64,000 bases of DNA from a virus (IMGVR_UViG_3300045391_002348:1-64000), one strand, 5' to 3'; numbered from the stretch's first letter, positions 9,127 to 44,978 are shown. Program-made: numbers and translations. Notes: generated by a model from the letters alone, not told the origin.

Positions 9127-9870
9127 ATGATGAGCTATAGTCGAAACTTGGAGGACGTGGTCCTCCATCGCGTGTTCGGGGACGTAGGTGTCGGGACCTA
9201 TGTCGATGTGGGGGCCGGCCACCCTCTCTGGGACAGCAACACTTATGCTCTCTATCGGAGAGGGTGGCGTGGGGTAGTGGTAGAACCCCTGCTGAGGTTC
9301 AAGCCATACAACGAGGCTTGGAACGAGCTCAGGCCCGGAGATACGAGAGTGTCCTCGATGGCAGGGGCCGGGATTGGTAAGAGAGAATTACAAATATTTG
9401 AGTCCCTCCAACTCAGCACTGGATGCGCCGAGGTCGCCGACCTCTGGACGCGAGGAGGGAAGCCACCTGCGAGGACGGAGTTGCTTGACGTCGTGCGTAT
9501 CGCCGACCTCATGCCTCCTGATCCAGTACACTTCATGAATATCGACGTGGAGGGTATGGAGCGCGAGGTCATAGCTGGCCTCGGTCCCCGCCTCCCCTGG
9601 GTCGTGTGTCTCGAGACCACGCGCCCAGGGACATCTCAGATACATGATCCGACTATCATCGACTCTCTCGTGTCGAGGGGATACCGTCTCGCGTACTTCG
9701 ATGGAATAAATGCGTTCCTCCTGAGCGACTATCATCTCAACCTACGGAAGTTCTTCAGGCTCGATGCCCCCGGCGGCTTCGTCCAATACTCCAAGACTAA
9801 GGAGTGCCAGGAGCTTTACAAGGAGTGGCAGGGGCGGGTCAAGGCAGAGGCATCGGAGTTATTCGCATGA
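9127..9870 (+). CDS. FkbM-family methyltransferase
   Basis: YVDVGAGHP...SNTYALYRRGWRGVVVEP; FMNIDVEGMEREVI. Confidence 0.9.
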   Translation: MMSYSRNLEDVVLHRVFGDVGVGTYVDVGAGHPLWDSNTYALYRRGWRGVVVEPLLRFKPYNEAWNELRPGDTRVSSMAGAGIGKRELQIFESLQLSTGCAEVADLWTRGGKPPARTELLDVVRIADLMPPDPVHFMNIDVEGMEREVIAGLGPRLPWVVCLETTRPGTSQIHDPTIIDSLVSRGYRLAYFDGINAFLLSDYHLNLRKFFRLDAPGGFVQYSKTKECQELYKEWQGRVKAEASELFA

Positions 9871-9989
9871 GGAGACACTCAAGGCGATCGAAGTCCCCAC
9901 CCTCGCGTCCTCTGTTTCTAACAGCGCGGCTTCTCGTCTCGTTCCGCTGGGAATGGTCCTGGCGGAGTTTCAAATGGAGATATGTGAAG

Positions 9990-10364
9990 ATGACAAAAGC
10001 ACTTCTCAAGTGGGTCGATCCCACGACGCGCGTCGACGGCTCGGCTCTCGCCTCCTCGGACATCTCGTCGATCACGATCCATGATGACACCGACGGTCTC
10101 GTGGGCTCGGTACTCCCGGGGGTCCAGACCTTCACGACCTCTACGCTCTCCGTGGGGGATCACTCCTTCTACGCGATCGCTCATGACACGAGCGGCCACT
10201 CCTCGGGTAGGTCGAACGTGGCCTCGGTCACGGTAACTCCGACCCTCGCGAACCCGGCCGCCCCGTCCGGTCTGACAGCAGAGCTGGTCGAGGAGCCGTT
10301 GCCGCCTCCCGCAGCGCCGCCCTCCGACGCTCCTCCGCCTGCAGACACTCCGGCCGGCGGCTGA
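9990..10364 (+). CDS. Fibronectin type III-like protein with Pro-rich tail
   Basis: LKWVDPTT...HSFYAIAHDTSGHSSGRSNVASVT...PAAPSGLTA Fn3 pattern; GGAG RBS. Confidence 0.6.
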   Translation: MTKALLKWVDPTTRVDGSALASSDISSITIHDDTDGLVGSVLPGVQTFTTSTLSVGDHSFYAIAHDTSGHSSGRSNVASVTVTPTLANPAAPSGLTAELVEEPLPPPAAPPSDAPPPADTPAGG

Positions 10365-10366
10365 TC

Positions 10367-10555
10367 TTGCTCGCACTGAAGCAGTGCGCTCACTCTTGTT
10401 GCAGCATCGACGGCGTCTGCTGTGGGTGCTGCAAGAAGTTCGGGGAGGAGCCCTCGAACCAGCTGGCAGCTAGCTGCCGGAAGGAGGGCGAGAAGGACTG
10501 CTGCCACACGCACAAACCAACCACACCCTCGATTACTTGGCAGCAGTCCCCATGA
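10367..10555 (+). CDS. Cys-rich small protein (metallothionein-like)
   Basis: 10 Cys and 3 His in 62 aa; fills the gap exactly; stop overlaps the portal ATG. Confidence 0.5.
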   Translation: MLALKQCAHSCCSIDGVCCGCCKKFGEEPSNQLAASCRKEGEKDCCHTHKPTTPSITWQQSP

Positions 10556-12039
10556 GCCCAGCGAAGAAGATCGTCCAGCTGTTCCCGTTCATGAACGACA
10601 CGTTCCAGAACCTCCTTGCGGGGTTCGGAGTTCTCGGAAGGGACAAGGCCGTCAGTCAGCAGGCGATCTTACGACTACTGTCCATGGCCGATCTCGAAGC
10701 GCTCTACCGAGGGGACTGGTTGTCACGGAAGATCATCGATGCCCCCGCATTCGACATGTGCCGGCAGTGGCGCCAGTGGCAGGCAGACGCCGAGGACATA
10801 ACGAAGATCGAGGAGTGCGAGATCACCCTGAAGTTACAGCAGAAGCTCATGGAGGCCATGTGCATGTCCCGCCTATACGGCGGTGCGTGCTTGATCCTCG
10901 GAGTAGATCGAGGAGACTTCAGAAGCGAGCTCGATCCGAAGAAGGTCCAGAAGGATGAGTTGAAGTTCGTCCACGTCGTCTCGAAGAACGTGATCTCGAC
11001 CGGGCCGAGGGTCCGAGACATCATGTCTCCGTGGTTCAACCAGCCGTCCTACTTTGTCAGGCCCAACGTCCCCACTCCGCCTCCTCCCGGGGGCGTCGAG
11101 CCGGTGGCCCAGTACGACCTACCAAACGCTCTACCTGACATGGGCTCCTTCTACATCCACCCCTCGCGGGTCATCCAATTCGTCGGAGCCCCCTACCCGG
11201 ACCCTGAGATAGCTCCGGACGCCTGGGGTGACAGTGTGCTACAGATAGTACACGACGCAATCAACTCGACTTCGATGGTGAATTCATCGATCAGTTCGAT
11301 GATAGCCGAGGCCAAGGTCGACGTGATCAAGATGCCGGGTCTGGCTGAAGTTATGAGTACTCAGGAGGGGTCGAGTCGACTGATAGAGAGGTTCGCAAGG
11401 TCCAATGCGGCAAAGAGTGTCGTGAATACTTTGATGCTCGACGCAAAGGAGGAGTGGGAGAGGCACACACTCGCTCTCTCCGGGTTTGACTCGGTCATGA
11501 TGACTTACCTGACTATCGCTGCAGGCGCAGCAGATATCCCGGCTACCCGCCTCCTGGGCAAGAGTCCGTCCGGGATGGATGCGACCGGCGAGAGTGACAT
11601 GCGGAACTACTACGACCGGCTGAAGTCCGACCAGAACATGAGACTGAAGCCGGCCCTCGGTCCTCTCGATGAGATCATCATCCGCAGCCTCATCGGTACG
11701 AGGGAGCCGGGTGACTTCTCGTACGAGTGGCGTCCGCTCTGGCAGATGGACGATGCGCAGAAGGCGGACATCGAGTTCAAGATCGCCCAGGCCCACGCAG
11801 TGGATGCGAACTCCGGTCTCATCGACCCCGTCCTACTCCGGACAGGGCGGGAGAACTACCTGAGTGAGCACGGCGTCCTCTATCCGGGATTCGACGTGGC
11901 CCGAGCAGACTACGAGGAGGAGTTCGCAGCCGAGCTCGAAGAGCGGAGCAACGCGATGCGGGAGGCCGAGATGAATGGCCTTAATAACACGGGTCAGCCC
12001 GACGACCCTGCTGTCGAGGAACTGACGAACGGGGAGTAG
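10552..12039 (+). CDS. Portal protein (DUF1073 family)
   Basis: LYRGDWLSRKIIDAPAFDMCRQW; IHPSRVIQF; AADIPATRLLGKSPSGMDATGESDMRNYYD. Confidence 0.9.
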   Translation: MSPAKKIVQLFPFMNDTFQNLLAGFGVLGRDKAVSQQAILRLLSMADLEALYRGDWLSRKIIDAPAFDMCRQWRQWQADAEDITKIEECEITLKLQQKLMEAMCMSRLYGGACLILGVDRGDFRSELDPKKVQKDELKFVHVVSKNVISTGPRVRDIMSPWFNQPSYFVRPNVPTPPPPGGVEPVAQYDLPNALPDMGSFYIHPSRVIQFVGAPYPDPEIAPDAWGDSVLQIVHDAINSTSMVNSSISSMIAEAKVDVIKMPGLAEVMSTQEGSSRLIERFARSNAAKSVVNTLMLDAKEEWERHTLALSGFDSVMMTYLTIAAGAADIPATRLLGKSPSGMDATGESDMRNYYDRLKSDQNMRLKPALGPLDEIIIRSLIGTREPGDFSYEWRPLWQMDDAQKADIEFKIAQAHAVDANSGLIDPVLLRTGRENYLSEHGVLYPGFDVARADYEEEFAAELEERSNAMREAEMNGLNNTGQPDDPAVEELTNGE

Positions 12040-12044
12040 GCATC

Positions 12045-12128
12045 GTGGGTGACTATCTGACGCTCGTGGTTGTTGTTCTGATCGTAGGCAGGTTCGCCTG
12101 GCTGGCTTTCTGGAGAGCTACCCTGTGA
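12045..12128 (+). CDS. Small hydrophobic peptide (27 aa)
   Basis: GTG start; LTLVVVVLIVGRFAWLAFW; GTGA overlap with the MuF start. Confidence 0.4.
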   Translation: MGDYLTLVVVVLIVGRFAWLAFWRATL

Positions 12129-14167
12129 TTCTTACGTGCTGCTCTCTCACTGATGCCACGAGCCGTCGCGATCCGACCGGTACTGAGAAGCTGCGGATAT
12201 TGGCTCGCAAGAACGCCGTGATGATCCTGAACCGTCTATGCATGAGCCTTAAGACGGCCGTTGTCAATCACGACCTTCTCGCTCTAGGTCCTCAGTCTCC
12301 GAGCCACTACTCGGACACGCACCTTCGTCACTCGGCATTGTCGAAGTGGCTGGCCTCGGTCTCCTCTCAGGCCTTCCACAACTGGCTGACCCGGCCGATC
12401 GCTGCTGCCTGGGTGGGCGGGATATCCGCGGCCAGGAAGGACGTGAGGGGACCGGACCCGGAGGACAACAGCGCGATCTTCCTGGTCTGGTCCGGTACCG
12501 AGCTGGCAGGGATACTGGGCGCAGGGGGCCAGCTGGTCTCCCGGGCGGCCCTGCACATCCAGAAGGGTACGAGGCCTGTGGAGGCCTACAGGACCTTGCG
12601 GGGCGAGCTCCTGAAGATCAGGCCTAGACTAGAGGCCCTGGCCAACATGGCCATTGTGAAGACCTTCAACACGGCGCGGCTGGCCACCTACGAGGCCGCC
12701 GGAGTGAAGAGGGTGGGAGTGGTCCCGGAGAGTCTTCGCAGGGGGAACCCGCTCATCCAGGACACTGGCTGGACGGAGGAGGCCCGCGAGGCAGCTCTAG
12801 CTGCCCGAAGGGCCAACGCGAAAGGTCCGTCGATCGAGAGTCACCCCGGCGGGGCAAGTATGATCGGATACACCTCTTACCCTCACGACCCTAATCCGGC
12901 GGCCCACGCGGGTCTGAAGCGCGACGCCGCTACGCTTCGAAGTAACAACAAATACGACGAGGCGATAAAGTCGAAGCTGAACGACTTACAGTTAGTTGGG
13001 TTGTTCAGGTACATAAAGGATGACGACTTTGCTCAGAATGTGAATAAGCCGCTGAGAGAGGGGACGGCCAACCTTCCTGGAAGAGAGCGCGTCAGGGAGG
13101 CGGCAGACGTCATAAGCAGTGCCCTGGCACAGCTACCAAAGTACACCAGCGGGGACGTCTACCGGACGATCCAGATCAAGGGTGGTCGAGCAGATAAGTT
13201 GTTCAAAGAGAACAGTGTCGTCGAGTTCAAGGCCTTCACTTCTACAACAAAGAATCGGGGGCTGGCTGAGGGTATCAGCGCGTTCGGTGAACTTAGCGGG
13301 GGCAAGGCCGTAAATAATAAGACCGTGTTTACTCTGAAGAACGCTGGCGGAGTCGACGTGTCTGGGATCAGTCCCTATGATCATGAACAGGTCCTAATCG
13401 ACAAGGGGTCCCACTTTCACATCGACTCAGTGAAGAAGCGCGAGGGTGGCGGTTGGAGTATTACGGCGACCAGAGTGTCTGGAGCGAAGGACGCCGATCC
13501 TCTCGCCCCCTACCGGGCCATGGCCCGGAGGCGCCGAGGAGTCGGCACCATGGTCCAAGTCCGGACCGCCGAGGACGACCTCGTCTGCGTGGACTGCGAG
13601 GACGCGGCGGAGGCCGGACCCTACTCCGTGGTCGAGGCCTATGATATGTTTCCGATGCACGTGAACTGCAGGTGCAGCTTCGTCCCCTACGACGCGGACG
13701 ACGAGGACGACCTCGAAGAAGATAGTGGGCCGTTTGATCCAGTCCAGCTGGCCCTCCTGAACCTCTCCGCCCTGCTCAACACGATGGACACAGGGTGGAC
13801 AGAGGAGGCCCGCGAGGCTGCACTAGCCGCGAGAAGAGCAGCGGCCCACGCAGCCGGAGCTGTCAGTGCCGGAGCCATGCGGGTTGGAGCCCGCGCCGCC
13901 TCCCGTTGGATCTCGACAAACGCGAAGGCGAGAGAGGCCCTGGGTAAGGTACTGACGGAGTCGAACGTAAAGTCCGCGGTCTCCCTCGGGATCAAGAGCG
14001 CCCTCTACCACCTCGGCAATCTCGACGACCCGGCTATGAATGTGATAGAGCCGTTCATCGAGCACCACGTCCACAACATCGAGTCGACCCTCCAGGTCAC
14101 GAAGGGTAGGGCCCATGATATGATGATGGCCGGGGTGCGGAAGCTGATGGACGCGAGGAATAAGTAA
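12125..14167 (+). CDS. MuF-like head morphogenesis protein with inserted ADP-ribosyltransferase-like domain and second cargo
   Basis: Follows portal; MuF Zn motif CVDC...HVNCRC; ART motifs VYR / FTSTT / YDHEQVL; two identical DTGWTEEAREAALAARRA tags. Confidence 0.8.
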   Translation: MILTCCSLTDATSRRDPTGTEKLRILARKNAVMILNRLCMSLKTAVVNHDLLALGPQSPSHYSDTHLRHSALSKWLASVSSQAFHNWLTRPIAAAWVGGISAARKDVRGPDPEDNSAIFLVWSGTELAGILGAGGQLVSRAALHIQKGTRPVEAYRTLRGELLKIRPRLEALANMAIVKTFNTARLATYEAAGVKRVGVVPESLRRGNPLIQDTGWTEEAREAALAARRANAKGPSIESHPGGASMIGYTSYPHDPNPAAHAGLKRDAATLRSNNKYDEAIKSKLNDLQLVGLFRYIKDDDFAQNVNKPLREGTANLPGRERVREAADVISSALAQLPKYTSGDVYRTIQIKGGRADKLFKENSVVEFKAFTSTTKNRGLAEGISAFGELSGGKAVNNKTVFTLKNAGGVDVSGISPYDHEQVLIDKGSHFHIDSVKKREGGGWSITATRVSGAKDADPLAPYRAMARRRRGVGTMVQVRTAEDDLVCVDCEDAAEAGPYSVVEAYDMFPMHVNCRCSFVPYDADDEDDLEEDSGPFDPVQLALLNLSALLNTMDTGWTEEAREAALAARRAAAHAAGAVSAGAMRVGARAASRWISTNAKAREALGKVLTESNVKSAVSLGIKSALYHLGNLDDPAMNVIEPFIEHHVHNIESTLQVTKGRAHDMMMAGVRKLMDARNK

Positions 14168-14168
14168 C

Positions 14169-14384
14169 ATGGATATGATCCACGCATCTCTGTCCTACAT
14201 CTACGCCAGTCTGAGAAGGAGCGCCGTCAAGCACGGCGTCGACCCCTCCAAGCGAACCAAGGCCGAGTTCGCCGGCGACGAGAAGGCCAAGCAGGTGTTC
14301 ATCGCAGCCTGGGGCCAGGAGGCGTACGACGGTCTGAAAGACGACCTCGACGATACTGGCTACACTATGCGAAAGAAGGTCTAG
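14169..14384 (+). CDS. Hypothetical protein (71 aa)
   Basis: Starts 1 nt after the MuF stop; ends DDTGYTMRKKV. Confidence 0.6.
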   Translation: MDMIHASLSYIYASLRRSAVKHGVDPSKRTKAEFAGDEKAKQVFIAAWGQEAYDGLKDDLDDTGYTMRKKV

Positions 14385-14389
14385 CAACT

Positions 14390-15343
14390 GTGAACGTCCT
14401 AGTCAGGGGTTTGCACGGCTTCGGAGACGGCATCCACCAGAGGGCGATCATCCGCTCGATGATAAAGTACAGCACCTACACCCTCTGGCTCCAGACGGCC
14501 TACCCGTGCCTGTATCTCGACCTGATAGGGGAGCGTCTAAAATTGGTAGATATCCAGAGCCGTCTCAGGTGCCAGGCGAAGAACGCGATCCGAGAGCAGC
14601 AGTACTTCTCCAGTCCTCCGCCCAACATCCTGCGGATCGAGATCAGTTACGACGGCGTCGCCCTCCACCCGGGAAGGACATTGGTCCAAGGACTGGCCGG
14701 GAAGTTCAACCTACCCGCGGACGACCTCGACTTCTCCCTGCCGATCCAGAGTGAATGGCGGCGCGAGACCTACCCTCTCACCGAGAGCTGGCCGGAGGAC
14801 AAGCCGTGGCTGATCGTCCGACCCCTCACCGAGAGGAGGGAGTGGGAGGGCTACTGCCGTGCAAGGAACCCTCTGACCTACGCCTATCAGATCATCTATG
14901 AGGAGCTTCGCGAGCGATACTTCACTATCAGTATTGCGGACCTGTCCCCGGGCAAGGAGTGGCTGGTCGGTCCGGGGCCCGAGGCCGATGTGTACTTCAA
15001 CAAGGGTGAGCTGACCCCAGAACAGGTCATGACCCTGTTTAGCGTATCCGACCTCATCTTCTCCTCGCCGGGCTTCGCACTTCCTCTAGCCCTCGCCCTT
15101 GACAAGAGGATCATCTGCGTGTTCGGTGGCTTCGAGTGCGCGGACGCCTACACGAAGTCCGAGAACTTTCTGGCTATCGAGCCGATCACCCCGTGTCCTT
15201 GTTACAACAAAGAACACAAGTGCAACAAGACCATCGACCTCATGAGGGCGCTGGAGAGGATAGAGGAGTTCATTGAGCATGATCACACGTCGACACGCAA
15301 TCGGTCTCCTGGCCTTATTGCCGGTATCAGTACGAGCTCGTGA
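14390..15343 (+). CDS. GT9-like (heptosyltransferase-like) glycosyltransferase
   Basis: GLHGFGDGIHQRAII N-terminal motif; LALALDKRIICVFGG; C-terminal PCPC...C. Confidence 0.75.
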   Translation: MNVLVRGLHGFGDGIHQRAIIRSMIKYSTYTLWLQTAYPCLYLDLIGERLKLVDIQSRLRCQAKNAIREQQYFSSPPPNILRIEISYDGVALHPGRTLVQGLAGKFNLPADDLDFSLPIQSEWRRETYPLTESWPEDKPWLIVRPLTERREWEGYCRARNPLTYAYQIIYEELRERYFTISIADLSPGKEWLVGPGPEADVYFNKGELTPEQVMTLFSVSDLIFSSPGFALPLALALDKRIICVFGGFECADAYTKSENFLAIEPITPCPCYNKEHKCNKTIDLMRALERIEEFIEHDHTSTRNRSPGLIAGISTSS

Positions 15344-15647
15344 CGACGGTAGATACGCTCAGCAGTCTCCAGCACTCAGAGAGTGGTTCGATAATCTCAG
15401 GAACAACAACGGAAACCGGTGCTGCTCCGACGCCGACGGTCGCAGGGTAGAGGACCCGGACTGGGAGGCCCTTCCCGAGGGGAGGTACAAAGTCAGGCTG
15501 GTACCGAAGATCGGCCAGTGGCACACAGTAGAACCAGCTCAGGTCGTTCGGGAAAATAACAAGGTCGGCTACGCAGTAGTCTGGCGATCCGAGGATTATA
15601 ATGGTCAAGAGACGATTATCTGTTTCATGCCAGGATCGTCGTCTTGA
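15279..15647 (+). CDS. Exported Cys-containing protein
   Basis: MITRRHAIGLLALLPVSVRA signal peptide; WFDNL...CCSDADG...CFMPG. Confidence 0.7.
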   Translation: MITRRHAIGLLALLPVSVRARDDGRYAQQSPALREWFDNLRNNNGNRCCSDADGRRVEDPDWEALPEGRYKVRLVPKIGQWHTVEPAQVVRENNKVGYAVVWRSEDYNGQETIICFMPGSSS

Positions 15648-15663
15648 GATCAGGGGGCACCGG

Positions 15664-15753
15664 GTGAACCTGGGCGACTTCAACCGACTGTTCGTCGGCG
15701 CATTTATACTAGCGTTCCTGATCATATTACTCGGGATCGGCTACTTGACCTAG
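15664..15753 (+). CDS. Small membrane peptide (29 aa)
   Basis: GTG after AGGGGG; LFVGAFILAFLIILLGIGYLT. Confidence 0.4.
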   Translation: MNLGDFNRLFVGAFILAFLIILLGIGYLT

Positions 15754-15766
15754 ATAGGAGAGTTCT

Positions 15767-17113
15767 ATGGTTATCAGGAGAAGGCGGACTGCCGCGACAG
15801 TCGTGGATACGAACTTCGAACAGTGCAACCGGATCATCGGAGACGCCGCGAGACCTCCGGTCATAGCAGATGATGTTCGGTGGAACACCGACAACGCCGG
15901 GGCCATCTCCCTGTTCGATGCGCTGGAGTTCGACGACCAGGCGAGGGTGAGGATCACGAACGATGGCTACCTCGTCGCGAACCCCAGGATCGCCAGGACC
16001 GGTATCCAGGTGTATCTCGGCTCCGAATGTGGCCGGCCGGACCTCGCCCAGGTGAGGGTCATGCGACCCGCCGACTCCGTGTTCCATACCGACGCGATGC
16101 ACTCCTACGCCCACCGACCGATCACCATAGACCATCCCGGCGTCCGGGTCACCGCGGACAACTGGAAGGAGTACGCCGTCGGCCAGACCGGCGGCGACGT
16201 AGTCAGAGACGGCGGCACTGTCCGCGTTCCTACTGTTCTCATGGATGCGGCTGCGATCCAGGAGTTCAAGAATGGCAAGAAGCAGCTCAGTGTAGGGTAC
16301 ACGTGCAACCTCGACTGGACCCCCGGAGAGCACGAGGGTCAGAAGTACGATGCTGTACAAACAAATATCAGGGCAAACCATCTCGCGGTAGTCGCCAATG
16401 CGCGGGGCGGACCTCAGCTAGTCATCGGCGACAACGCAATGGAGAACCAGATGAACTTGAAGACAGTCATGGTAGATGGCATCAACTGCCAGATGACCGA
16501 TACCGCGGCGGAGATTGTTCTCCGTGCGCTGAAGACTTCTGCCGATACGATCACTCAGATGAAGGCCGATGCCAAGAAGCGAGATGACGAGGACGAGGAG
16601 TGCGACAAGGAGGATATGAAGAAGGATGAGCTGATCAAGACGAAGGACGCGGAGATCGCGACCCTTAGACAGCAGCTCGCCGACGCGAAGGTCACTCCTG
16701 CACAACTCGACGCTCTCGTGAAGGCCCGCCAGGAGACCTTCGACAAGGCGCGGGCTCTCGGCATCAAGGGTCTCACAGTCGACGGCAAGTCTGTGGAGGA
16801 CGTTCAGAAGGAGGTCGTCACGACGAAGCTCGGAGACGCGGCGAAGGGGTGGGACGCTGCCCAGATCGCCGCCTCCTTCAACACTTTGACCGCCGGTGTC
16901 AAGACCACGGGAAGTCACACCCTCGACCATGCGCGTCAGGCCTTCGGCGGTGATCCCGCTCATCAGTATCGTCCGGGAGGTCCGAGCTACGCTCAGGGCG
17001 GTGTAATGAGTCCGCAGGACCAGGCCTACAGTGACAGCGTGTTCGATCTTGAGAACGGCTGGCGCGGTGCGGACTGGCTGGCGAAGAACCGTCCAGGTCA
17101 GCGACAGCAGTAA
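15767..17113 (+). CDS. Prohead protease/scaffold (DUF2213)
   Basis: GYLVANPRIARTGIQVY, RPITIDHP, QLSVGY, NHLAVVANARGG; coiled-coil scaffold C-half. Confidence 0.9.
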   Translation: MVIRRRRTAATVVDTNFEQCNRIIGDAARPPVIADDVRWNTDNAGAISLFDALEFDDQARVRITNDGYLVANPRIARTGIQVYLGSECGRPDLAQVRVMRPADSVFHTDAMHSYAHRPITIDHPGVRVTADNWKEYAVGQTGGDVVRDGGTVRVPTVLMDAAAIQEFKNGKKQLSVGYTCNLDWTPGEHEGQKYDAVQTNIRANHLAVVANARGGPQLVIGDNAMENQMNLKTVMVDGINCQMTDTAAEIVLRALKTSADTITQMKADAKKRDDEDEECDKEDMKKDELIKTKDAEIATLRQQLADAKVTPAQLDALVKARQETFDKARALGIKGLTVDGKSVEDVQKEVVTTKLGDAAKGWDAAQIAASFNTLTAGVKTTGSHTLDHARQAFGGDPAHQYRPGGPSYAQGGVMSPQDQAYSDSVFDLENGWRGADWLAKNRPGQRQQ

Positions 17114-17180
17114 TCAGCGCGCGGGGTGTTGCCGGGACCCTCCGCTCCATCTAACAAACACTTACTAGGAGATCATCTCT

Positions 17181-18029
17181 ATGGGTACAGTAGTCCAAAC
17201 AAGCTACGCTCCACAGCAGCGAGCCGGCATCGTTGGCATGCTCGTGAACCAAGTTCCTCACACTGTACGCTCCATGACTGTCGAGACCGCGGCCGGCATC
17301 GGCTTTGGTCTCGCCGTCAGCCAGGGGTCCAGGGACGGTGGCTGCATTCTCGCCGGCTCAGCCTTCGTCGGCCTGAGCGTCCGAGACGTCACCCTCGGCC
17401 TCGCCCCTGTCGATCCTCTGAGTGACACTCCGAACACTCTCGACACGTACGGCGTCTACACCGAGGCCGCTATCATGACGAGAGGAGACATGTGGGTGGC
17501 TCCCCAGGGAGCCGTGGCTGCCGGTAACAGCGTCTATTACAACACGACGACTGGGAAGCTCAGCGCGAGCGGCTCCGGCAACGGCGCATCCGGCTCCATC
17601 GTGTTCACCTCCCAACCGGTGGCCGACTCGACGATCACCCTGAACGGAGAGGCCTACACGTTCAAGGCATCCGGCGCGACAGGGGACCAGGTCAACATCG
17701 GTCCTACCCTCGGAGACACGATTAGCAATCTCGTCGCTGTCCTGAATGCGAGCTCCAACACCGAGACGGCGAAAGCCACCTACGCGGCCTCCCCCTCCTC
17801 GCCGGGAGGAGCTGGTCAAGGCTCGGGGGCCGACACCCTTCTCATCAGCTTCGATACCGTGGGCACCGCTGGTAACAGCTGGACGATCGCCACGACAGTG
17901 ACAGGAGCTACGAGGTCCGCAGCTACCCTCCTGGGCGGCACGGCTGCAGCTACTCAGATCACCGGAGCCCGCTGGGCGACCAGCGCGATCACCGGCCAGT
18001 TGGCTGTCGTCTCTCTCGGCAACCAGTAA
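17181..18029 (+). CDS. Capsid decoration/cement protein with inserted domain
   Basis: Between protease and MCP; GIGFGLAV...GDMWV; about 119-aa insertion at 17583-17939. Confidence 0.7.
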   Translation: MGTVVQTSYAPQQRAGIVGMLVNQVPHTVRSMTVETAAGIGFGLAVSQGSRDGGCILAGSAFVGLSVRDVTLGLAPVDPLSDTPNTLDTYGVYTEAAIMTRGDMWVAPQGAVAAGNSVYYNTTTGKLSASGSGNGASGSIVFTSQPVADSTITLNGEAYTFKASGATGDQVNIGPTLGDTISNLVAVLNASSNTETAKATYAASPSSPGGAGQGSGADTLLISFDTVGTAGNSWTIATTVTGATRSAATLLGGTAAATQITGARWATSAITGQLAVVSLGNQ

Positions 18030-37797: not shown

Positions 37798-37798
37798 G

Positions 37799-38320
37799 AT
37801 GCCACAGGGTAGTGCTCCCCCGGCTGACTGGAGGGCGACAGAGAGCGGCAACTTGCCGTCATACCGTCCTGCTACTACGCAGGGCGATCCCATGCTGTAT
37901 CAGTGGGGGCCTGTCCAGTTCAAGGTCTTTCCTCTTAACCTCCACGAGATCGACCACGAGACGGCGACCGACTGGGCGAAGAAGGAGATCGTCGGCGCGG
38001 CGATCTACAGAGAGTGGGTCGGAGAGAATGACGAGACGCTCTACATCCGCGGCCGCATCTTCCCCTACAGGATAGGGGGCATGTCGGCCCTGGAGGCCTT
38101 CGAGGCGATGCGGCGAGGGGGAATAGCAAATATGATGATCCGCGGCGACGGCGCTGTCCTCGGCTGGTTCGTCTGCGAGAAGTTAGTCCGCAACCACACC
38201 TCCCTCTCCTCTCAGGGTGTGGGCCAGATGATTGCGTTCGAGGCCGTCCTGACCCGCGTACCCGTTCCGGAGAATGACCAGTACGCGAGCCAACTCTGGG
38301 GCTCGGTTCTTAACAGGTAG
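37799..38320 (+). CDS. Tail protein (P2 gpU-like)
   Basis: MLYQWGPVQF...EWVGENDETLYIRGRIFP...DG..LGWFV. Confidence 0.85.
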   Translation: MPQGSAPPADWRATESGNLPSYRPATTQGDPMLYQWGPVQFKVFPLNLHEIDHETATDWAKKEIVGAAIYREWVGENDETLYIRGRIFPYRIGGMSALEAFEAMRRGGIANMMIRGDGAVLGWFVCEKLVRNHTSLSSQGVGQMIAFEAVLTRVPVPENDQYASQLWGSVLNR

Positions 38321-38323
38321 CAG

Positions 38324-38596
38324 ATGGCAATCGCAGGCTTCGAGATAATCCAGGTCACAAGTGACTTCGTCACGATCGACCTCATCATCTGGCGGCGCTA
38401 CATGCAGAGAGCCCGCGGGCTCGTTGAACTCATGCTCGACGCGAACCCGCACCTCTCCCGCCTCCATCAGTCGTCTCCGTTCTTGCCGGTGGGGACACTC
38501 ATCCGCGTTCCGATCGATCCTAGTATGATGGTCGGGAAGCCGCCGGCCTCCGACATGTCGAACCTCTGGACCGACCGTAAGGGATATTCTCTGTGA
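38324..38596 (+). CDS. Tail protein X (LysM-like)
   Basis: TIDLIIWRRY...LDANPHL...LPVGTLIRVP. Confidence 0.85.
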   Translation: MAIAGFEIIQVTSDFVTIDLIIWRRYMQRARGLVELMLDANPHLSRLHQSSPFLPVGTLIRVPIDPSMMVGKPPASDMSNLWTDRKGYSL

Positions 38597-39771
38597 CATT
38601 GTACGATCCCAACTCCGGCTTCGACCCTTTCAAGGGGTCGGCTACGAATGCGAACAAACTACTCGCGTACTGCAAGGTCGTGGTGGATGGGGTAGATGTA
38701 ACCGACAGGCTGGAGCCGCACTTGGAGCTCGTCCGTGTCGTCGACTCGATCTACAGCGAGGCTTATCTGGAGGTCGACGACCGTGATGCCAGACTTCCTA
38801 TCCCACCCTTCGGGGCTCCGGTGAAGATCGAGATGGGTTGGCGCTTCAAGGGTAAGCAGTCCACCGTCATGGTATTCGACGGACTAGTCCAGGACCTAGA
38901 GCACGGGAACGACAGGACGACCGGTCGCAAGATGTGGGTTCACTGCTGGGGTCGAGACCTCCTCAGCCGGATCAAGGAGCCCATGCAGGATCACCTCGGC
39001 GAGGGGGCTCCTCCCGGGAAGGAGATCGGAGAGCAGCACAAGCTCGGCGATTGGATCAGACAGATTGAGAAGAACGCCGGAGCGAAGGTGAAGATACACC
39101 CGGCCCTCTATGGCAAGACCCGCGACTACTGGGTCCAGCCCGGAGAGAGCTTCGAGCACACGATGCAGGACCTCGCGAACCAGGTCGGCGCGGTTTTCCG
39201 CCTCACCGCCGGCAACGAGGGTATCTTCACACTCCCGGGGGAGGAGCCTGACGGCTCCTCGACGGCCGACAGCGCTGTGACAGCTAAGTGGGGCGACAAC
39301 CTCATCTCCTGGCGGGTTCACCCACTGGCTGCGAGACCGAGCTGGGCGAAGACGAACCAGCAGTATTACTCGGCGCGCAAAGGACAATGGCGCGTCGTCC
39401 AGAAGGACCTGAACCTGCCGCTTCCATGGGGCGGCGCGAAGGCTATCTACGCCCTGCCGGCCCCGGCTCCTAACGCTCCTGTGTCAGATCAGCTGAACCA
39501 GGGAACGATCCAGTTCGCCGGCATCGAGCCGGGGTTCGGACGTCTCTGTATGAACGGGGAGCCCGACGCCCGGTTCAACGGATATGTGAAGTTGACAGGG
39601 GTCCGCCCGGGTGTCGACGGTATCTACTGGATCACATCGGCCGAGCACATCTACAGCCGGATGGGTTACGTGACCTGGCTCGACGTCCAGATCGACCTCC
39701 GGAACTGGAAGGGCGGGGGAGGAGTACAGGACGGCTACATCCCGGACAGTGCTGCAGAGTCGACGGGGTAG
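38593..39771 (+). CDS. Baseplate hub (P2 gpD-like)
   Basis: VDGVDVTDRL...GEPDARFNG...G.RPGVDG.YWITSAEH. Confidence 0.85.
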   Translation: MTLYDPNSGFDPFKGSATNANKLLAYCKVVVDGVDVTDRLEPHLELVRVVDSIYSEAYLEVDDRDARLPIPPFGAPVKIEMGWRFKGKQSTVMVFDGLVQDLEHGNDRTTGRKMWVHCWGRDLLSRIKEPMQDHLGEGAPPGKEIGEQHKLGDWIRQIEKNAGAKVKIHPALYGKTRDYWVQPGESFEHTMQDLANQVGAVFRLTAGNEGIFTLPGEEPDGSSTADSAVTAKWGDNLISWRVHPLAARPSWAKTNQQYYSARKGQWRVVQKDLNLPLPWGGAKAIYALPAPAPNAPVSDQLNQGTIQFAGIEPGFGRLCMNGEPDARFNGYVKLTGVRPGVDGIYWITSAEHIYSRMGYVTWLDVQIDLRNWKGGGGVQDGYIPDSAAESTG

Positions 39772-39774
39772 GCA

Positions 39775-41691
39775 GTGTCTGTATTTCAGATCGGGGCGCT
39801 GTTCTCTGGCGAGAGCAATCTAGCAAAGCGGGTCCGGTACCAGCCAGAGCGTATCTCAGCATTGTTTGCTGGGACCTTTCGTGTCGTAATTGGACGGGCC
39901 TCCCTCCCAACGATTATACACGCGCGCCACGAGTGGCCGGACGGAATAAACAGTCATATCCGAGAGGCTGTCTACAGCAATCACAACGACGAGCACCAGA
40001 TCGTCGTGGATGGAAGATCGCTCGTTGGTCTATCCTCCGACGGGGTCGGGGTGGCCGAGAAGATCACGGTCGTTCCTCCCCTCGTTCTCAGCAACGGACA
40101 CCTCTCATTCGATCCCACGACGATCCAGGACAACCTCGACGGGACGGTGGCCTCCATCTCCTCTCTCAGAGGGGATATGCAGGCCCAGATCGACGCTCTG
40201 ATCAACGCCCTCGCTGCAGAGGTTGCGATAAGAAAAGACGCCCAGGACGCTCTGTCCTCCGCTCTAACTCTGGAGACATCGATCCGAGCCGCTGCCGATG
40301 CTGAGGTCGCTGCCTCCACCTCGTCCTCCGACATCAGGCCGGGGACTGTCCTGTATGCCCAGTCGGTGGTCGGCGTAAATAACAATGACATAGTAACTGG
40401 GAATAATCTTCGCGTCATCGGGTTCCAAGCGGGAAGCGTTTCTACTCCGCACATGACCTACACGTCCTATGACGGCGTCGGATTTCAGACGCTCGCCGTG
40501 GAGTTGGATGGTGTTACAGGTTCTGGACTTTTCAACATCGGCACCTTTACTAACACTGCACAGGGCTCCGGCATCCCGGGCAGCTGGATGAACATCTCCG
40601 GTTTCAACATCGGAGCGAACGGCTTCGGCATCTTCGTCCGCATCCCGTGGCCGAGGGTCGTCTCGATCCAGACCGGGGCGGGAGCCCTCCTCGCATCGAC
40701 GAAGATGATGAAGGTTGCCCAGCCCGGTAGAATGATTGGCGCAGGCTCCCTGTCAGCGAATGCGAAGTACCAGCCGGAGAGGGTCCAGGCGAAGTTCGCC
40801 GGCACGGGAGTCGTTCTGACCTCTACTCTAAAGCTGGTGTCTCCGCTCGCCTCGATCCAGTTCAACGCCGCCTCATCTCTCAATGGCGACGCTCAGCCTA
40901 CTCTCCGCTGGCAGGGGGATACGATTGGAAGTCTTGCCGCGAGTGCCCGGTACGCCCGGGGCGGATCGGCCCTGCTATCTGGTGCGAGCTCTCTATCAGC
41001 CAAGACCGTCTCGCGCTCTACCGCCTCGGCCCTCGTCCCCGCCGTCGGTTCTCTCATAGCCAGCATGCCTGGTCCTCAGAGGTATGACGGAGCGAACATA
41101 GCCGGGGCCACGACCCTCAAGTCGTCCTCTCTCGTGCTCAGGACTGGCTCTGCTCTATTCGCGGGAACCTCCACCCTCGCCGCGTCTACAAAACAACGCG
41201 AGGCTGTTTTCCCGCTGGTCGGAGGAGCCGGTGCTGTCTCTGCCGGGACCATCCAGAGGCTCGCGGCCTCGGCCCTCATCGGGGGGACGAGCAGCCTCCC
41301 CGTCACAGCCGTGATGACAGCTCTGGCATCGTCCAAGTCCTCCGGGTCCTCTCTCATGCCTGTAGCTGCGGTCCTCTATCAGATGGCATCCGCCTCTCTC
41401 ATGCAAGGAGCAACCGACCTGACTTCTGATGCGACCGGCTTATTCTCCGTCCCGATAGACGGAGAGAGTACTCTCGCCAGTGACACGACCGCGAAGCTCT
41501 CAGCCAGGGCCACGATGAACGGAGAGGGTGGCCTCGCTGCCGAGACAGTCGCAAACTTCGAGACCGGCTCCGCCTCCAATGGTGAGAGCTCGCTAGAGGG
41601 TATAGCCTGGACCACCGGGGATATGATAGAGGCGCAGTCCGACGGTGAGAGCGACCTCCAGGTCGATGCCGAGATAGTACAGGAGGGCTAG
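39775..41691 (+). CDS. Repeat-rich fibre-like protein
   Basis: Ser/Ala/Gly-rich ~20-22-aa repeats (A.L.G.S.L); 310-aa insert between two YQPER copies. Confidence 0.6.
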   Translation: MSVFQIGALFSGESNLAKRVRYQPERISALFAGTFRVVIGRASLPTIIHARHEWPDGINSHIREAVYSNHNDEHQIVVDGRSLVGLSSDGVGVAEKITVVPPLVLSNGHLSFDPTTIQDNLDGTVASISSLRGDMQAQIDALINALAAEVAIRKDAQDALSSALTLETSIRAAADAEVAASTSSSDIRPGTVLYAQSVVGVNNNDIVTGNNLRVIGFQAGSVSTPHMTYTSYDGVGFQTLAVELDGVTGSGLFNIGTFTNTAQGSGIPGSWMNISGFNIGANGFGIFVRIPWPRVVSIQTGAGALLASTKMMKVAQPGRMIGAGSLSANAKYQPERVQAKFAGTGVVLTSTLKLVSPLASIQFNAASSLNGDAQPTLRWQGDTIGSLAASARYARGGSALLSGASSLSAKTVSRSTASALVPAVGSLIASMPGPQRYDGANIAGATTLKSSSLVLRTGSALFAGTSTLAASTKQREAVFPLVGGAGAVSAGTIQRLAASALIGGTSSLPVTAVMTALASSKSSGSSLMPVAAVLYQMASASLMQGATDLTSDATGLFSVPIDGESTLASDTTAKLSARATMNGEGGLAAETVANFETGSASNGESSLEGIAWTTGDMIEAQSDGESDLQVDAEIVQEG

Positions 41692-41757
41692 AATGAGATA
41701 GAGGCTTTGCTAAGTAGTGCAAGTTACAAACTTCTAACTAAAGATCAGGGCACACTA

Positions 41758-43602
41758 ATGAAAACGATTGTAGTAAAATGCCGGTACGGCGCCATCCAGG
41801 TGTTTGCCGACGACCGGTTCATATCGAAGTCCTTGCTGGAGCTCGGGGAGTACAGCGAGAGAGAGGTCGACCTGTGGAGGCACATCCTACGACCAGAGAT
41901 GATCGCAGTGGAGGTTGGAGCGAACATCGGAGCCCTCACCCTCCCTCTCGCCGGGATCGTCTCTCACGTCTACGCGATCGAGCCCCAGCCGCAGATCAAC
42001 GACCTGCTCCTGGAGAATACGAAGCATCTTCCGAACGTCACTGTCATGAATATGGCGATTGGAAGTACGCGGGGGATCATGTATGCTCCGAGCTTGGATC
42101 ACCTCTCGGATACGAACTATGGGGCCATCGAGATGGGTTCTGACGGTGACTGCCAGGTTCCCGTCGTTCCCCTCGACACGCTCCCCCTGGGAGAGCGTGT
42201 CGACTTCATAAAGATCGACGTCGAGGGGATGGAGGCCGACGTCCTGAAGGGGGCGAGGGAGATAATTAACAGATGTCGACCGCTCCTCTATGTCGAGAAT
42301 GATCGACCGGGGTTCGACAGTCTAATCGGGACAGTGAGAGCCCTGGGCTATAGGTGCTGGTGGCACCTGCCGCCGCTATTTTCTAGTAACAACTTCAGGG
42401 GTTCTACGAAGAACCCGTTCGGTGAGCTCGTCTCTATGAACATGCTCTGCATCCCTACCGAGAGGGTGCCCGAGTTTGCGAAAGTAACAGCAGACCTCCG
42501 CCCGGCTGTACCGGCCTCTGTTGGTCGCAAGGGCTGGGTCGGGGTCGCCCGCTTCGGAGGGATCGGAGATGATCTCATCGCAGCCTCGGTGCTCGCTCCT
42601 CTGAAGCGACAGGGCTACAAGATCGACATCATAACCCAGATGCCGCAGGGTGTCGTGTTCGAGAACAACCCTTATGTGGACAAGCTCTCGATCAAGGAGC
42701 CCGGGGAGATACCGAACACAGATCAGATGGCCTGGCAGAATTGGTTCAAGACCCGTGCTGGGGAGTACGATAAGTTTGTGAACCTGAGTCACAGTTGTGA
42801 GGTCTCGCTCGCGATCCTAGCAGCTATGACGCAGGCCCAGTGGCTCCCGTCGGCCCGCAGGAAGTACTTCGGGCACAACTATCTGGAGTTCGTGCACGAC
42901 CTCTTGGAGGTCCCCTATGAGTTCGGCCCCCTGTTCTTTCCCACCGAGGAGGAGAGGGACCAGGCCGCTCACACCAGGCGGAGGATCGGCACCGGTCCTA
43001 TCATCGGCTGGTGCCTGAACGGGAGCAGGGTTGACAAGGTCTACGCAGCCCTGCCCATCGCGATTGCCCGGGTGATCAAGGAGCTGGGGGCGCAGGTCGT
43101 CATGTTCGGGGCTCCTCCCCCGAGGCCGGACTTCGCCGCGGCGAAGCAGTGCCAGGAGCATGTGATAAATCAGAACGGCACCGACCGAGGTCTCCACCTC
43201 GCTCTCTCGCCGAACGATGTCGACAACTCCTGGCCGATCAGAAGGATGCTGACGCAGGTCCTCGACTGCGACGTGGTAGTAGGTCCGGACACCGGCCCCA
43301 TGTGGGCTGCAGCCTTTGAGCAGATGCCGAAGATCATGCTGCATAGTCACGCCAGTCAGAACAACATTACGAAGCACTGGCGAAATACCATCAGTCTGAT
43401 CCCGGACCAGAGAGAGGTTCCGTGCTGGCCCTGCCACCTCTTGCACGACGATGTCGGGAGTTGCCAGAGAGAGCAGCGACGCTGTGGTCTCAAGCCGGAC
43501 ACGAACGACAAGGCGGCAGCCTGCATCAGCTCGATCTCCGTCGAGACGATCGTGGGGGCTATCAGGAGTGTATTAACAAACCGGGAGAAATCCAGTGTCT
43601 AA
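41758..43602 (+). CDS. FkbM methyltransferase-GT9 glycosyltransferase fusion
   Basis: VEVGANIGALT, FIKIDVEGMEADVL; then RFGGIGDDLIAASVL, VVGPDTGPMWAA, CWPC...C. Confidence 0.88.
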   Translation: MKTIVVKCRYGAIQVFADDRFISKSLLELGEYSEREVDLWRHILRPEMIAVEVGANIGALTLPLAGIVSHVYAIEPQPQINDLLLENTKHLPNVTVMNMAIGSTRGIMYAPSLDHLSDTNYGAIEMGSDGDCQVPVVPLDTLPLGERVDFIKIDVEGMEADVLKGAREIINRCRPLLYVENDRPGFDSLIGTVRALGYRCWWHLPPLFSSNNFRGSTKNPFGELVSMNMLCIPTERVPEFAKVTADLRPAVPASVGRKGWVGVARFGGIGDDLIAASVLAPLKRQGYKIDIITQMPQGVVFENNPYVDKLSIKEPGEIPNTDQMAWQNWFKTRAGEYDKFVNLSHSCEVSLAILAAMTQAQWLPSARRKYFGHNYLEFVHDLLEVPYEFGPLFFPTEEERDQAAHTRRRIGTGPIIGWCLNGSRVDKVYAALPIAIARVIKELGAQVVMFGAPPPRPDFAAAKQCQEHVINQNGTDRGLHLALSPNDVDNSWPIRRMLTQVLDCDVVVGPDTGPMWAAAFEQMPKIMLHSHASQNNITKHWRNTISLIPDQREVPCWPCHLLHDDVGSCQREQRRCGLKPDTNDKAAACISSISVETIVGAIRSVLTNREKSSV

Positions 43603-43834
43603 TAAAGACGACGAGTTCGAGTACCAGACCCGCACGCTGGTAATCGACGCTAACTTAGCGGCCGAGTGCGAGAAGCTGCAGAAGGGTGGGTGGGAGATCA
43701 CCCCCGGTGCACTTCCGGTAGCCATCTATCACCTCCGGAAGCGCGCAGCGTCTCCGGCCGTGATGGCAGAGGGAGGGGTCACGATCGACGACTCCATGGT
43801 CACCATCATCCGCGGTAACGGCGCCGCCAGCTGA
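43595..43834 (+). CDS. Hypothetical protein (79 aa)
   Basis: GTG start overlapping the upstream stop. Confidence 0.55.
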   Translation: MSNKDDEFEYQTRTLVIDANLAAECEKLQKGGWEITPGALPVAIYHLRKRAASPAVMAEGGVTIDDSMVTIIRGNGAAS

Positions 43835-43869
43835 GTGACTTAACTAACTGAAACCACAAGAGGAGAACT

Positions 43870-44343
43870 ATGATGCACACGAAACGGTCCGAGCGCATTC
43901 GGCTGATGAACCTCGGTCTCACCGTACCGATGCTCGCTCGGTTTGCTAACATATCCCAGGCCATGAGTAAGAGCATGCTCGACTGGGCTCTCAACGGGGC
44001 CACCCCGACCCGGCCCGGCGCGGTCTACGCCGGCCTTGCTCTCGGTGCTCCGGGTAGCGCAGCCTCCTCCGAGATCGGAACGGGCTCGGGGTACACCCGC
44101 CAGACTATGGCCATGGGTGCAGCAGGAACTCCGTCCGGCTCGGGTACTGCTACAAACAACGCGAACGTGACCTTCGGTCCGTTCTCCACGGCTCAGTCCA
44201 TCAGCGGCATCTTCCTGGCGGACACCGTCTCGTCCGGCGCAGGTACGATGCTGTTCTACGGAACTCTGACGACCCCCCGGACCGTCTCTCCTGGAGACAG
44301 TCTCGTCGTCTCATCGGCAGCTCTGACCATCACCCTGAGCTGA
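43870..44343 (+). CDS. Small beta-rich fibre/structural protein
   Basis: GAGGAG RBS; SGYTRQ...TNNANVTF...LFYGTLTTPRTVSPGD pattern common in phage fibre clusters. Confidence 0.65.
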   Translation: MMHTKRSERIRLMNLGLTVPMLARFANISQAMSKSMLDWALNGATPTRPGAVYAGLALGAPGSAASSEIGTGSGYTRQTMAMGAAGTPSGSGTATNNANVTFGPFSTAQSISGIFLADTVSSGAGTMLFYGTLTTPRTVSPGDSLVVSSAALTITLS

Positions 44344-44978
44344 TGGCCAAGATCGGCGTCGTATTCTACGCGGACGATCCTCATCGCCGCATCTTCCGCA
44401 CGGTTCACCTCGTCCCGGGCGACACTGACGCCGAGTTTGACAAACCAGAGTGGGTCACGGTCGGGGTCGATCCGTACCGCGTCGCCACTCTGGAGGTCAT
44501 CGACGAGGCCGAGTTACCAGGTCGTCCGAGGGGTTCTGTGTCGATGCCAGCCGACGAGCCGTGGCCCCCTCCGCCTCCTGAACCGTACAGGGCTCCCGCT
44601 GACTTGATTAGCGCGACACTGGACTTCGCAGCAGTCGACTCAGGTGATGTCCTCATCGACCTGGGGTGCGGAGTCGGTGACTGGCTGGCCGCGGCCCGTC
44701 TTCGGGGGGCTCATGCGATTGGCATAGAGATAGACGGCCGTCTCGTCGAGAAGGCCCGGATGATCGACGGGGTCGAGGTCCGTCACGGGAGTGTCGAGGG
44801 GGCCGACCTGTCGGAGGCCACTGTGGTGATCGCAAACATGGGCGAGAGTCTCCCACGAAATATCCTGTCACTCGCGACAGGGTCTCGACTGGTAGTCGTG
44901 GACGCTCCCCCGTGGTTGAAGGTCCCCGTCCTGCGGTCGGAGTTTAACGGTCACTCGATGGGACTGTGGCGGCTGTAG
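44343..44978 (+). CDS. Class I SAM-dependent methyltransferase
   Basis: DVLIDLGCGVGDWL...AIGIEID...RHGSVEGADLSEATVV. Confidence 0.8.
   Translation: MAKIGVVFYADDPHRRIFRTVHLVPGDTDAEFDKPEWVTVGVDPYRVATLEVIDEAELPGRPRGSVSMPADEPWPPPPPEPYRAPADLISATLDFAAVDSGDVLIDLGCGVGDWLAAARLRGAHAIGIEIDGRLVEKARMIDGVEVRHGSVEGADLSEATVVIANMGESLPRNILSLATGSRLVVVDAPPWLKVPVLRSEFNGHSMGLWRL

Follow-up and report, generated by a model that had tools for sequence, protein, structure and literature searches.

A candidate virion glycosylation and methylation system linked to chain-like fibre and head genes in an uncultured contractile-tailed phage

The stretch IMGVR_UViG_3300045391_002348:1-64000, called here the window (the whole 64,000 nucleotides analysed), makes up the first 64 kb of a virus genome from IMG/VR that is complete, has direct terminal repeats and measures 80,888 bp. 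It carries four genes for putative modifying enzymes: a stand-alone FkbM-family methyltransferase (9127), a GT9-fold glycosyltransferase-like protein (open reading frame (ORF) 14390), a fusion of an FkbM domain with another GT9-fold domain (41758) and a class I S-adenosylmethionine (SAM) methyltransferase-like protein (44343). The analysis suggests that this phage glycosylates and methylates its own virion proteins, which is considered probable but far from secure. This reading is preferred because it explains more of the evidence than any of its rivals. It is favoured because two unrelated GT9-fold families are each recurrently fused to unrelated methyltransferase families, because each of them is fixed in a block of structural genes, because one is tied in both directions to repetitive, Ser-rich fibre parts, and because of a near-absence from cellular genomes.

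The two glycosyltransferase (GT) domains are poorly recognized by sequence. ORF 14390 has no Pfam or NCBIfam match and is a member of phrog_6804. The C-terminal half of the fusion scores 17.2 bits against PF01075, under the cut-off of 22, and some of its homologues carry a precomputed match to this family. Sequence and profile searches of the PDB with both domains gave nothing significant (best match 3tov, E 0.089), and the two proteins are not detectable as paralogues of each other by BLASTP. AF2 models were built from alignments of 35 homologues for ORF 14390 and 33 for the GT domain of the fusion, and reached a pLDDT of 90.7 and 87.6, respectively. The top Foldseek match of the ORF 14390 model is WaaF (5.6e-11). 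With VIA-align, the fusion domain is closest to 3tov (Z 25.7), then to WaaF (24.7), TibC (20.9) and WaaC (20.6). For ORF 14390, TibC (Z 20.0, root mean square deviation 2.9 A over 261 residues) and 3tov (19.0) are tied within 1 Z unit, ahead of WaaF (17.9) and WaaC (16.3). Solved chains of GT9 enzymes, of TibC and of the plant NDH subunit PnsB1, taken together as the GT9 fold group, give Z 18.8-25.7 against the fusion domain and 14.9-20.0 against ORF 14390, whereas the best other GT-B fold gives 13.8 and 11.0. The models thus confirm that both domains have the GT9 fold, in a top tier separate from other GT-B folds, with a membership defined by fold and not by sequence. The original prediction had called both of them GT9: the name falls short of the Pfam threshold and holds at the level of the predicted fold (top matches at Z of about 20-26).

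Motifs of a catalytic type are conserved in both families. In the 33 homologues of the fusion domain, the GGxGD, RxDK-Y-P and PDTG motifs are invariant or nearly so; in the 35 homologues of ORF 14390, G12-D13 and many polar residues are invariant. Judging by motif position, the aspartate of the G-D motif probably corresponds to Asp13 of WaaC and Asp110 of TibC. Furthermore, the fusion family has a conserved C-terminal cluster, C-x2-C-H-x8-C-x19-C (cysteines at residues 334, 337, 347 and 367 of the 392 of the domain), and the ORF 14390 family a conserved C-terminal PCxC..H.H..C motif.

Methyltransferase domains accompany these enzymes. The FkbM domains proposed at 9127 and 41758 are both significant by sequence. 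The stand-alone protein matches the full PF05050 profile (7.5e-12, 46.1 bits, cut-off 22.7) and reaches 37.3 bits against TIGR01444, slightly below the cut-off of 37.7; a homologue of it lies 1 kb downstream of an FkbM-GT9 fusion in one related locus (L003). The N-terminal part of the fusion matches PF05050 (1.3e-18, 68.1 bits) and TIGR01444 (7.3e-24, 84.8 bits), and the FkbM profile also matches the FkbM structure 2py6 (2.7e-10). The protein encoded at 44343 is only marginally assigned as a class I methyltransferase. In favour of this assignment, its motif I reads VLIDLGCGVG and similarity to small SAM methyltransferases is seen in its C-terminal half (E 4e-9). Its best Pfam score, with PF13489, is sub-threshold (26.4 bits for a cut-off of 27) and covers only the first part of the fold. 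It has no full-length homologues, and its first ~90 residues are without relatives.

The fusion gene and the gene at 44343 lie between two genes for repeat proteins, and they are separated from each other by two genes that the original prediction had omitted, a small conserved ORF (43595-43834) and a gp80-like gene (43870-44343). The product of the latter matches PF23140 (GP4 fiber I protein gp80) over the entire profile (positions 1-128 of 128; 1.3e-24, 87.4 bits, cut-off 27). The profile built from its family matches gp80 of phage GP4 itself (PDB 8JOU chain a, E 8.5e-13, residues 1-138, that is, full length). In cultured phages the protein has a single weak match, in Roseobacter phage CRP-4. 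The same profile (43945-44340) gives sub-significant matches to LecB/PA-IIL fucose lectins of Pseudomonas (E 0.1-0.35), and the protein may be a lectin-like beta-sandwich. In phages GP4, VP1 and A1002, dimers of a ~140-aa gp80-type protein are strung by beta-sheet augmentation on a rope protein or domain, with 11 dimers on a rope of ~300 A in the case of A1002 (PMC13730344).

Both flanking proteins are consistent with the role of rope. They share one motif, spaced mostly at 20 residues: the repeat occurs about 11 times in the 39775 protein (45% Ser/Thr/Ala/Gly), and the motif 22 times, in two blocks, in the 44980 protein (56%). The claim that the enzymes sit between two Ser/Thr/Ala/Gly-rich repeat proteins is thus upheld. 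Pooling of related loci gave 235 spacings of exactly 20, others of 40 or 60, and a consensus that reads x-A-T-[FL]-A-G-x-G-S-L-S-A-x-A-x5-A. Nothing in the PDB matches the repeat region by sequence. The 39775 protein has no Pfam, PHROG or NCBIfam match, and its N-terminus is conserved after a gpD-like gene in two related loci (L002 and L051). For the 1201-aa protein, the ESM Atlas gives only weak leads (0.76-0.78) to Gly_rich_2 minor tail proteins; a long Gly-rich domain of low complexity (46100-47000, residues ~380-670) separates its two repeat blocks. From these features, the flanking proteins are probably ropes and the 43870 product the bead that docks on them. The original prediction of fibres is hence retained as far as repeat fibre parts are concerned, and they are better read as the rope and bead of a chain-like fibre of the GP4/A1002 type.

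The small ORF at 43595-43834 is part of a cluster (c8) whose members adjoin the GT9-like gene in the window and in 7 related loci. It matches no known family, and its members share the motif ...GW...PG..PVAIYH..R...ID.S.V.I.RDGK. In the same way, a 138-aa ORF directly 3' of the second rope gene (48702-49118) is conserved in 6 related loci (c18) without any family match; it may encode a fibre assembly factor.

This arrangement is not specific to the window. More than 563 proteins of the collection belong to the GT family of the fusion; they stand alone or are joined to FkbM (PF05050) or to class I methyltransferases (PF13847/PF08241 in P0194 and P0201). Its gene context was derived from ORF clustering in 67 related IMG/VR loci, the window's own stretch being excluded. 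In 52 of them the GT9-like gene is followed, on the same strand, by a gp80-like gene (median gap 599 bp), which is sometimes present in two copies. Methyltransferases, fused or separate and belonging to three families, occur in 48 loci. According to the ORF clusters, FkbM is fused in 7 loci and separate in 22, and class I types are present in 14; tblastn detects an FkbM-like sequence in 33. Other genes give further hints of sugar chemistry in these cassettes, namely a DUF5672 gene in 16 loci and a UDP-glucose/GDP-mannose dehydrogenase gene in 4. The DUF5672 gene (L040:13495-14298 and 15 other loci; PF18922, 4.3e-15) follows the GT9-like gene, and its product has no informative match in the PDB.

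The original prediction had proposed to look for co-occurrence of the enzymes with repeat fibres across phages. A protein with the 20-residue repeat (6 or more motif copies, and no fewer than 1 per 100 residues) was found in 30 of the 67 loci and in none of 80 control phage loci taken from structural regions of similar total size. The fraction rises to 29/40 among loci with at least 6 kb of downstream sequence. Proteins of more than 1000 aa containing 52-61% Ser/Thr/Ala/Gly commonly follow the cassette in related loci. The association was also tested in reverse, by a scan with a degenerate DNA motif that ignores the enzyme, on a sample that is small and biased toward the GNMLWYG motif: a GT9-like gene lies directly upstream in 24 of the 33 gp80-like loci. 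Only two close gp80-like relatives are without it, and both of these loci are cut off where the gene would lie. Seven divergent gp80-like proteins without the enzyme are also without the repeat protein and lack the Ser-rich loops PxSxSGSE and SPAGSASN.

The module behaves as a mobile unit, since its position differs between phages: it comes after the gpD-like tail gene in the window and its closest relatives, but between portal and capsid genes in others (L037). The family is restricted to phages: a search of 185,579 bacterial and archaeal species genomes gave one true match, on an 11.7-kb contig of a metagenome-assembled genome. This near-absence indicates that it is not a prophage conversion gene and argues against a lysogenic conversion of lipopolysaccharide (LPS). 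Among 50,697 records of cultured phages, no near-identical or protein-level relative of the GT domain was found, and only the FkbM part matches. As far as can be judged from sequence, the association of a GT9-like enzyme, a methyltransferase, a gp80-type bead and a 20-residue-repeat rope is a widespread module, which is a new result.

The ORF 14390 family, with at least 223 relatives in IMG/VR, belongs to another structural block. Among the 80 loci retrieved, the genes are commonly arranged as terminase, portal, ClpP protease, HK97-type capsid, an optional ~200-aa protein, the GT9-like protein, an optional Methyltransf_24 and head-tail connectors. The Methyltransf_24 gene lies beside the GT9-like gene in 14 loci, and one relative (P0079) is fused to this domain (PF13578). 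The cultured carriers include the Pseudomonas phages D3, PAJU2, PMG1 and PP9W2. In D3, orf12 is a homologue of ORF 14390 (~32% identity over 88%) and is followed by the methyltransferase gene orf13. In 24 loci the ORF 14390-type gene has as its neighbour the ~200-aa protein, a homologue of D3 orf7, which bears the RefSeq name alpha-2,3-sialyltransferase, and an orf7-like protein is fused to the N-terminus of the GT9-like protein in some loci. This classic phage thus holds orf7, orf12 and orf13 as a three-gene set (L068, 5204-5662 and 7001-8396).

In the phage studied here, the region from ~6.6 to 52.5 kb of the + strand is a single late operon of a contractile-tailed phage (myovirus), and the four enzyme genes are all on this strand inside it (Table 1). 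The original prediction that modifying genes are embedded in the morphogenesis operon is therefore correct, including their coordinates and strand. Taken as a whole, its description stands for the genes, the FkbM domains and the repeat fibres, and it is weakened for GT9 as a sequence assignment and for the marginal 44343 protein. It had also stated that the enzymes are without transmembrane (TM) segments, which is borne out (maximum 19-residue Kyte-Doolittle mean ≤1.58). Its statement that genes for nucleotide-sugar synthesis and base modification are missing concerned the window. No nucleotide-sugar synthesis family was matched among the ORFs scanned across the 80,888-bp genome; the 16.9 kb beyond the window hold genes for C5-methylase-like, N6/N4 methylase, ThyX, dCMP deaminase and AsnB-like proteins. 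The part of the genome outside the operon also carries PolA among replication genes. Within 64001-80888 (L070), the C5-methylase-like protein is 530 aa long, the AsnB-like one is an amidotransferase, a PRA-PH/MazG-like gene is also present, and three HNH homing-endonuclease genes are interspersed among the DNA-modification genes. In the head module, the 680-aa protein matches PF01129 (3.6e-9) and PF03496 (1.7e-7) and may be an effector delivered by the capsid.

Table 1. Features of the late operon of the window, and one gene of a related locus
Feature	Coordinates	Strand	Length	Context or remark
Large terminase TerL	6661	+		followed by an HNH/NUMOD3 gene
Stand-alone FkbM-family SAM methyltransferase	9127..9870	+	247 aa	between the HNH/NUMOD3 gene and the portal gene
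Portal	10537	+		follows FkbM 9127
Head protein (MuF-ART)	12125-14167	+	680 aa	directly 3' of the portal gene; ADP-ribosyltransferase domain
GT9-fold glycosyltransferase-like protein	14390..15343	+	317 aa	head module, between portal/MuF-ART and DUF2213/cement/capsid genes
DUF2213 gene, E217/Pam3-type cement protein, then major capsid protein (MCP)	MCP 18071	+		3' of ORF 14390
Baseplate genes, sheath, tube, tape measure protein (TMP), gpU-like and gpD-like genes	sheath 32285; tube 34690; TMP 35767	+
Candidate rope 1, fibre protein	39775..41691	+	638 aa	N-terminal attachment region, coiled coil, repeats in the C-terminal half
FkbM methyltransferase-GT9-fold glycosyltransferase fusion	41707..43602	+	614 aa from the database start	database start 41758
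Small conserved ORF	43595..43834	+	79 aa	adjoins the GT9-like gene; cluster c8
gp80-like chain-fibre bead monomer	43870..44343	+	~132 aa from the probable start	true start probably ~43945 by homology
Class I SAM methyltransferase-like protein	44343..44978	+	211 aa	start overlaps the stop of the bead gene; stop abuts the 44980 start
Candidate rope 2	44980..48585	+	1201 aa	N-terminal beta-rich domain, central Gly-rich domain
CHAP lysin	51802	+		3' of the block 39775-48585
Gene of a related locus	L028:11771-12592			listed with the DUF5672 and UDP-glucose/GDP-mannose dehydrogenase genes of related cassettes

The following scheme could account for these observations. Two systems for the modification of virion proteins would operate in the cytoplasm late in infection, each composed of a GT9-fold glycosyltransferase and at least one SAM methyltransferase. 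The first (41758-44978) would be part of the mobile chain-like fibre module. The gp80-like beads would dock on the 20-residue repeats of the ropes 39775 and 44980, and the fusion would add a sugar to Ser/Thr residues, either of the Ser-rich loops of the bead or of the G-S-L-S positions of the rope repeat. The donor would be a nucleotide-sugar of the host, with ADP-heptose, the default of the family, as a candidate. The fused FkbM domain, perhaps together with the 44343 methyltransferase, would then O-methylate the added sugar, and the fibre would thereby carry a coat of a methylated glycan in many copies. The second system (14390, possibly with FkbM 9127) would do the same on a head protein, capsid or cement. 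The role of such a coat could be shielding, stability or tuning of receptor binding. A more ambitious version of this scheme, which is put forward only tentatively and appears less probable than virion modification as such, is that many uncultured phages share a self-contained "glyco-fibre" module. In it, a metal-finger GT9 enzyme resembling the bacterial autotransporter heptosyltransferases (BAHT) and fused to a sugar O-methyltransferase would act along a beads-on-a-rope fibre, the rope repeat would serve both as docking register and as glycosylation code, and D3-type phages would possess a parallel capsid-directed system.

Several known systems resemble parts of this scheme. The closest in principle are the BAHT enzymes, TibC and Aah, which act on TibA and AIDA-I; TibC heptosylates Ser in the 19-residue repeats of its adhesin, and its C-lobe region holds a four-Cys iron finger, Cys339/342/358/370 (PMC4358343). 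Like them, the phage proteins have a GT9-related GT-B core, TibC being the best match of ORF 14390 and a strong one of the fusion, and the Asp of the N-terminal G-D motif is conserved. Towards the C-terminus, a four-Cys cluster occupies a position similar to that of the TibC iron finger. The enzyme gene also lies directly beside that of a surface filament made of Ser-rich repeats of ~19-20 residues. Unlike them, the phage proteins have no N-terminal beta-barrel and come with methyltransferases, as fusions or as pairs; their identity to BAHT enzymes is only 10-12%, and the fusion is closer to GT9 enzymes of the LPS type. These latter (WaaC, WaaF and the Veillonella GT9 3tov) are the best matches of the fusion, are also soluble and without TM segments, and share with it the GD, (R/K)xDK-W/Y-P and DTG motifs. 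The phage domains differ from them by their sub-threshold PF01075 scores and their extra Cys cluster. They also differ by their location in structural operons, their almost complete absence from cells and their linkage to fibre or head genes and methyltransferase genes.

As for the fibre, the phages GP4, VP1 and A1002 have the same bead family (PF23140), and the long multi-repeat proteins encoded beside the bead here fit the rope role. However, these are podophages whereas the present phage is a myovirus, in which the module is appended after gpU/gpD-like tail genes, and no glycosyltransferase or methyltransferase is mentioned in the account of the A1002 fibre (PMC13730344). Viral enzymes encoded near structural genes are also known to decorate virion proteins. 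Glycosylation of mycobacteriophage virions (capsid, tail tube) is cited in PMC12619734, and A064R of the chlorovirus PBCV-1 combines a glycosyltransferase and a methyltransferase in a single polypeptide that acts on the virion glycan and O-methylates its terminal sugar (PMC7826918). These enzymes belong to other families (neither GT9 nor FkbM) and other hosts, and their activity was shown by mass spectrometry or NMR, whereas the present case is built from sequence. Finally, D3 and its relatives (PAJU2, PMG1, PP9W2) resemble the window in that orf12, followed by a methyltransferase gene, lies among head-completion genes. They are different in that D3 is a temperate siphovirus, the partner methyltransferase is of another family and the orf7-like domain is absent from the window phage. 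No publication on GT9 or FkbM enzymes in the fibres or heads of phages came up in full-text literature searches.

A number of points weigh against the modification of virion proteins. The linkage to fibre and head genes, the methyltransferases and the near-absence from cells speak for it as originally predicted, but its support consists of genes, predicted folds and linkage. That gp80 and the repeat protein are linked can be explained by structure alone, as a bead and its rope, with no need for glycosylation. The contrast in Ser-rich loops rests on six or seven unlinked sequences. Neither domain reaches the curated PF01075 threshold by sequence, and ORF 14390 carries SPG where GT9 enzymes have D(T/S)G. 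The Cys/His clusters resemble the iron finger of TibC in position, and the N-terminal beta-barrel of TibC (residues 1-97) is absent from both phage proteins. Indeed, TibC enters the structural alignments at residue 93-97 and the models at residue 1 or 34; the place of the barrel is occupied by FkbM in the fusion, and ORF 14390 has no N-terminal extension. The fusion domain is nearer to GT9 of the LPS type (3tov and WaaF, Z ~25) than to TibC. Lastly, ten cassette genomes yielded no gene of the heptose pathway (SIS_2/GmhA), and the phage encodes DNA-modification genes outside the window.

Since the fusion domain is structurally nearest to LPS heptosyltransferases, the main rival is a modification of the host envelope. 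The enzymes would add a sugar and then a methyl group to the LPS core or to another glycolipid late in infection; by masking the receptor, they would spare the loss of progeny on debris and infected cells, and they would travel with fibre genes through co-evolution with the receptor binder. Many homologues are labelled "ADP-heptose:LPS heptosyltransferase" by JGI, LPS heptosyltransferases are likewise without TM segments, and the weak, non-significant LecB matches of the gp80-like profile hint at sugar binding. Nevertheless, this explanation is judged unlikely. The family is essentially absent from cellular genomes and hence from prophages, and the genes are translationally coupled in late structural operons, which leaves little time for remodelling of the outer membrane. 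Furthermore, some phages have the cassette between portal and capsid genes, the second family consistently follows the capsid gene, and ORF 14390 matches best the protein-acting TibC. Lysogenic conversion was set aside, as no prophage copies were found in cellular genomes. It was also considered that the GT9-fold proteins could be non-catalytic, as chaperones or scaffolds of the chain-like fibre and head, comparable to PnsB1 in plant NDH. Alternatively, they could act elsewhere, on a small molecule or a lipid-linked glycan unrelated to the virion, while the methyltransferases would methylate protein side chains directly. GT9-fold proteins without known enzymatic role are indeed among the matches (9grx, 7wff), ORF 14390 is without the D(T/S)G motif, and PMC13445384 reports a phage tail protein whose methylation by a host enzyme matters for infectivity. 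A non-catalytic role is unlikely for the fusion family because its GD, RxDK and DTG motifs are invariant. Many polar residues are also invariant in the ORF 14390 family, and the repeated fusion to sugar-type FkbM, with the nucleotide-sugar dehydrogenase and DUF5672 of related cassettes, points to sugar chemistry. These proposals are thus given little credence overall.

The explanation held to be the least probable is that the enzymes glycosylate and then methylate DNA, at a hydroxymethyl-pyrimidine or similar base, as in T4 and 5mYOX-type phages. The C5-methylase-like, AsnB-like, ThyX, dCMP deaminase and MazG/PRA-PH-like proteins encoded beyond the window would fit such a pathway, and phage DNA glycosyltransferases can have GT-B folds and are sometimes encoded near structural genes (bioRxiv 10.1101/2023.12.21.572611). 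However, the known GT-B enzymes acting on DNA resemble the beta-GT of T4 and not GT9 (same source), and ~35 kb separate the cassette from the DNA-modification genes. Of five complete genomes with the cassette, three lack both a thymidylate-synthase-type gene (PF00303) and a C5-methylase gene (PF00145), which argues against a DNA target. A homologue of ORF L070:4599-5471 was found in 0 of 10 genomes, by a search without positive control that shows little. The consistent neighbours are fibre and head genes and not genes of nucleotide metabolism. A glucosylation of DNA like that of T4 was set aside, because the enzymes are of another fold class and the genes required do not accompany the cassette.

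If GT9-type enzymes and methyltransferases do decorate the fibres and heads of many other phages, the surface chemistry of phages would include a sugar coat that is widespread and has been overlooked. To our knowledge, glycosylation of phage virions has so far been shown essentially only in mycobacteriophages, where it alters the recognition of the particle by antibodies. Such coats would have a bearing on host range, on the stability of particles in the environment and on the immune clearance of therapeutic phages. The principle of TibC and Aah, a heptosyltransferase that hyperglycosylates an adhesin built of repeats, would then extend to viruses. If, in addition, the "glyco-fibre" version proved true, this would be the first viral system of the protein heptosylation type and the first glycosylated receptor-binding fibre of a phage. 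The head-module version is carried by D3-like Pseudomonas phages. In all cases, the association of the enzyme gene with a gp80-type bead gene and a 20-residue-repeat rope gene offers a testable genetic signature of chain-like fibres. Even without glycosylation, the module would represent a fibre architecture that is new, and common in uncultured myoviruses as well as in other tailed phages.

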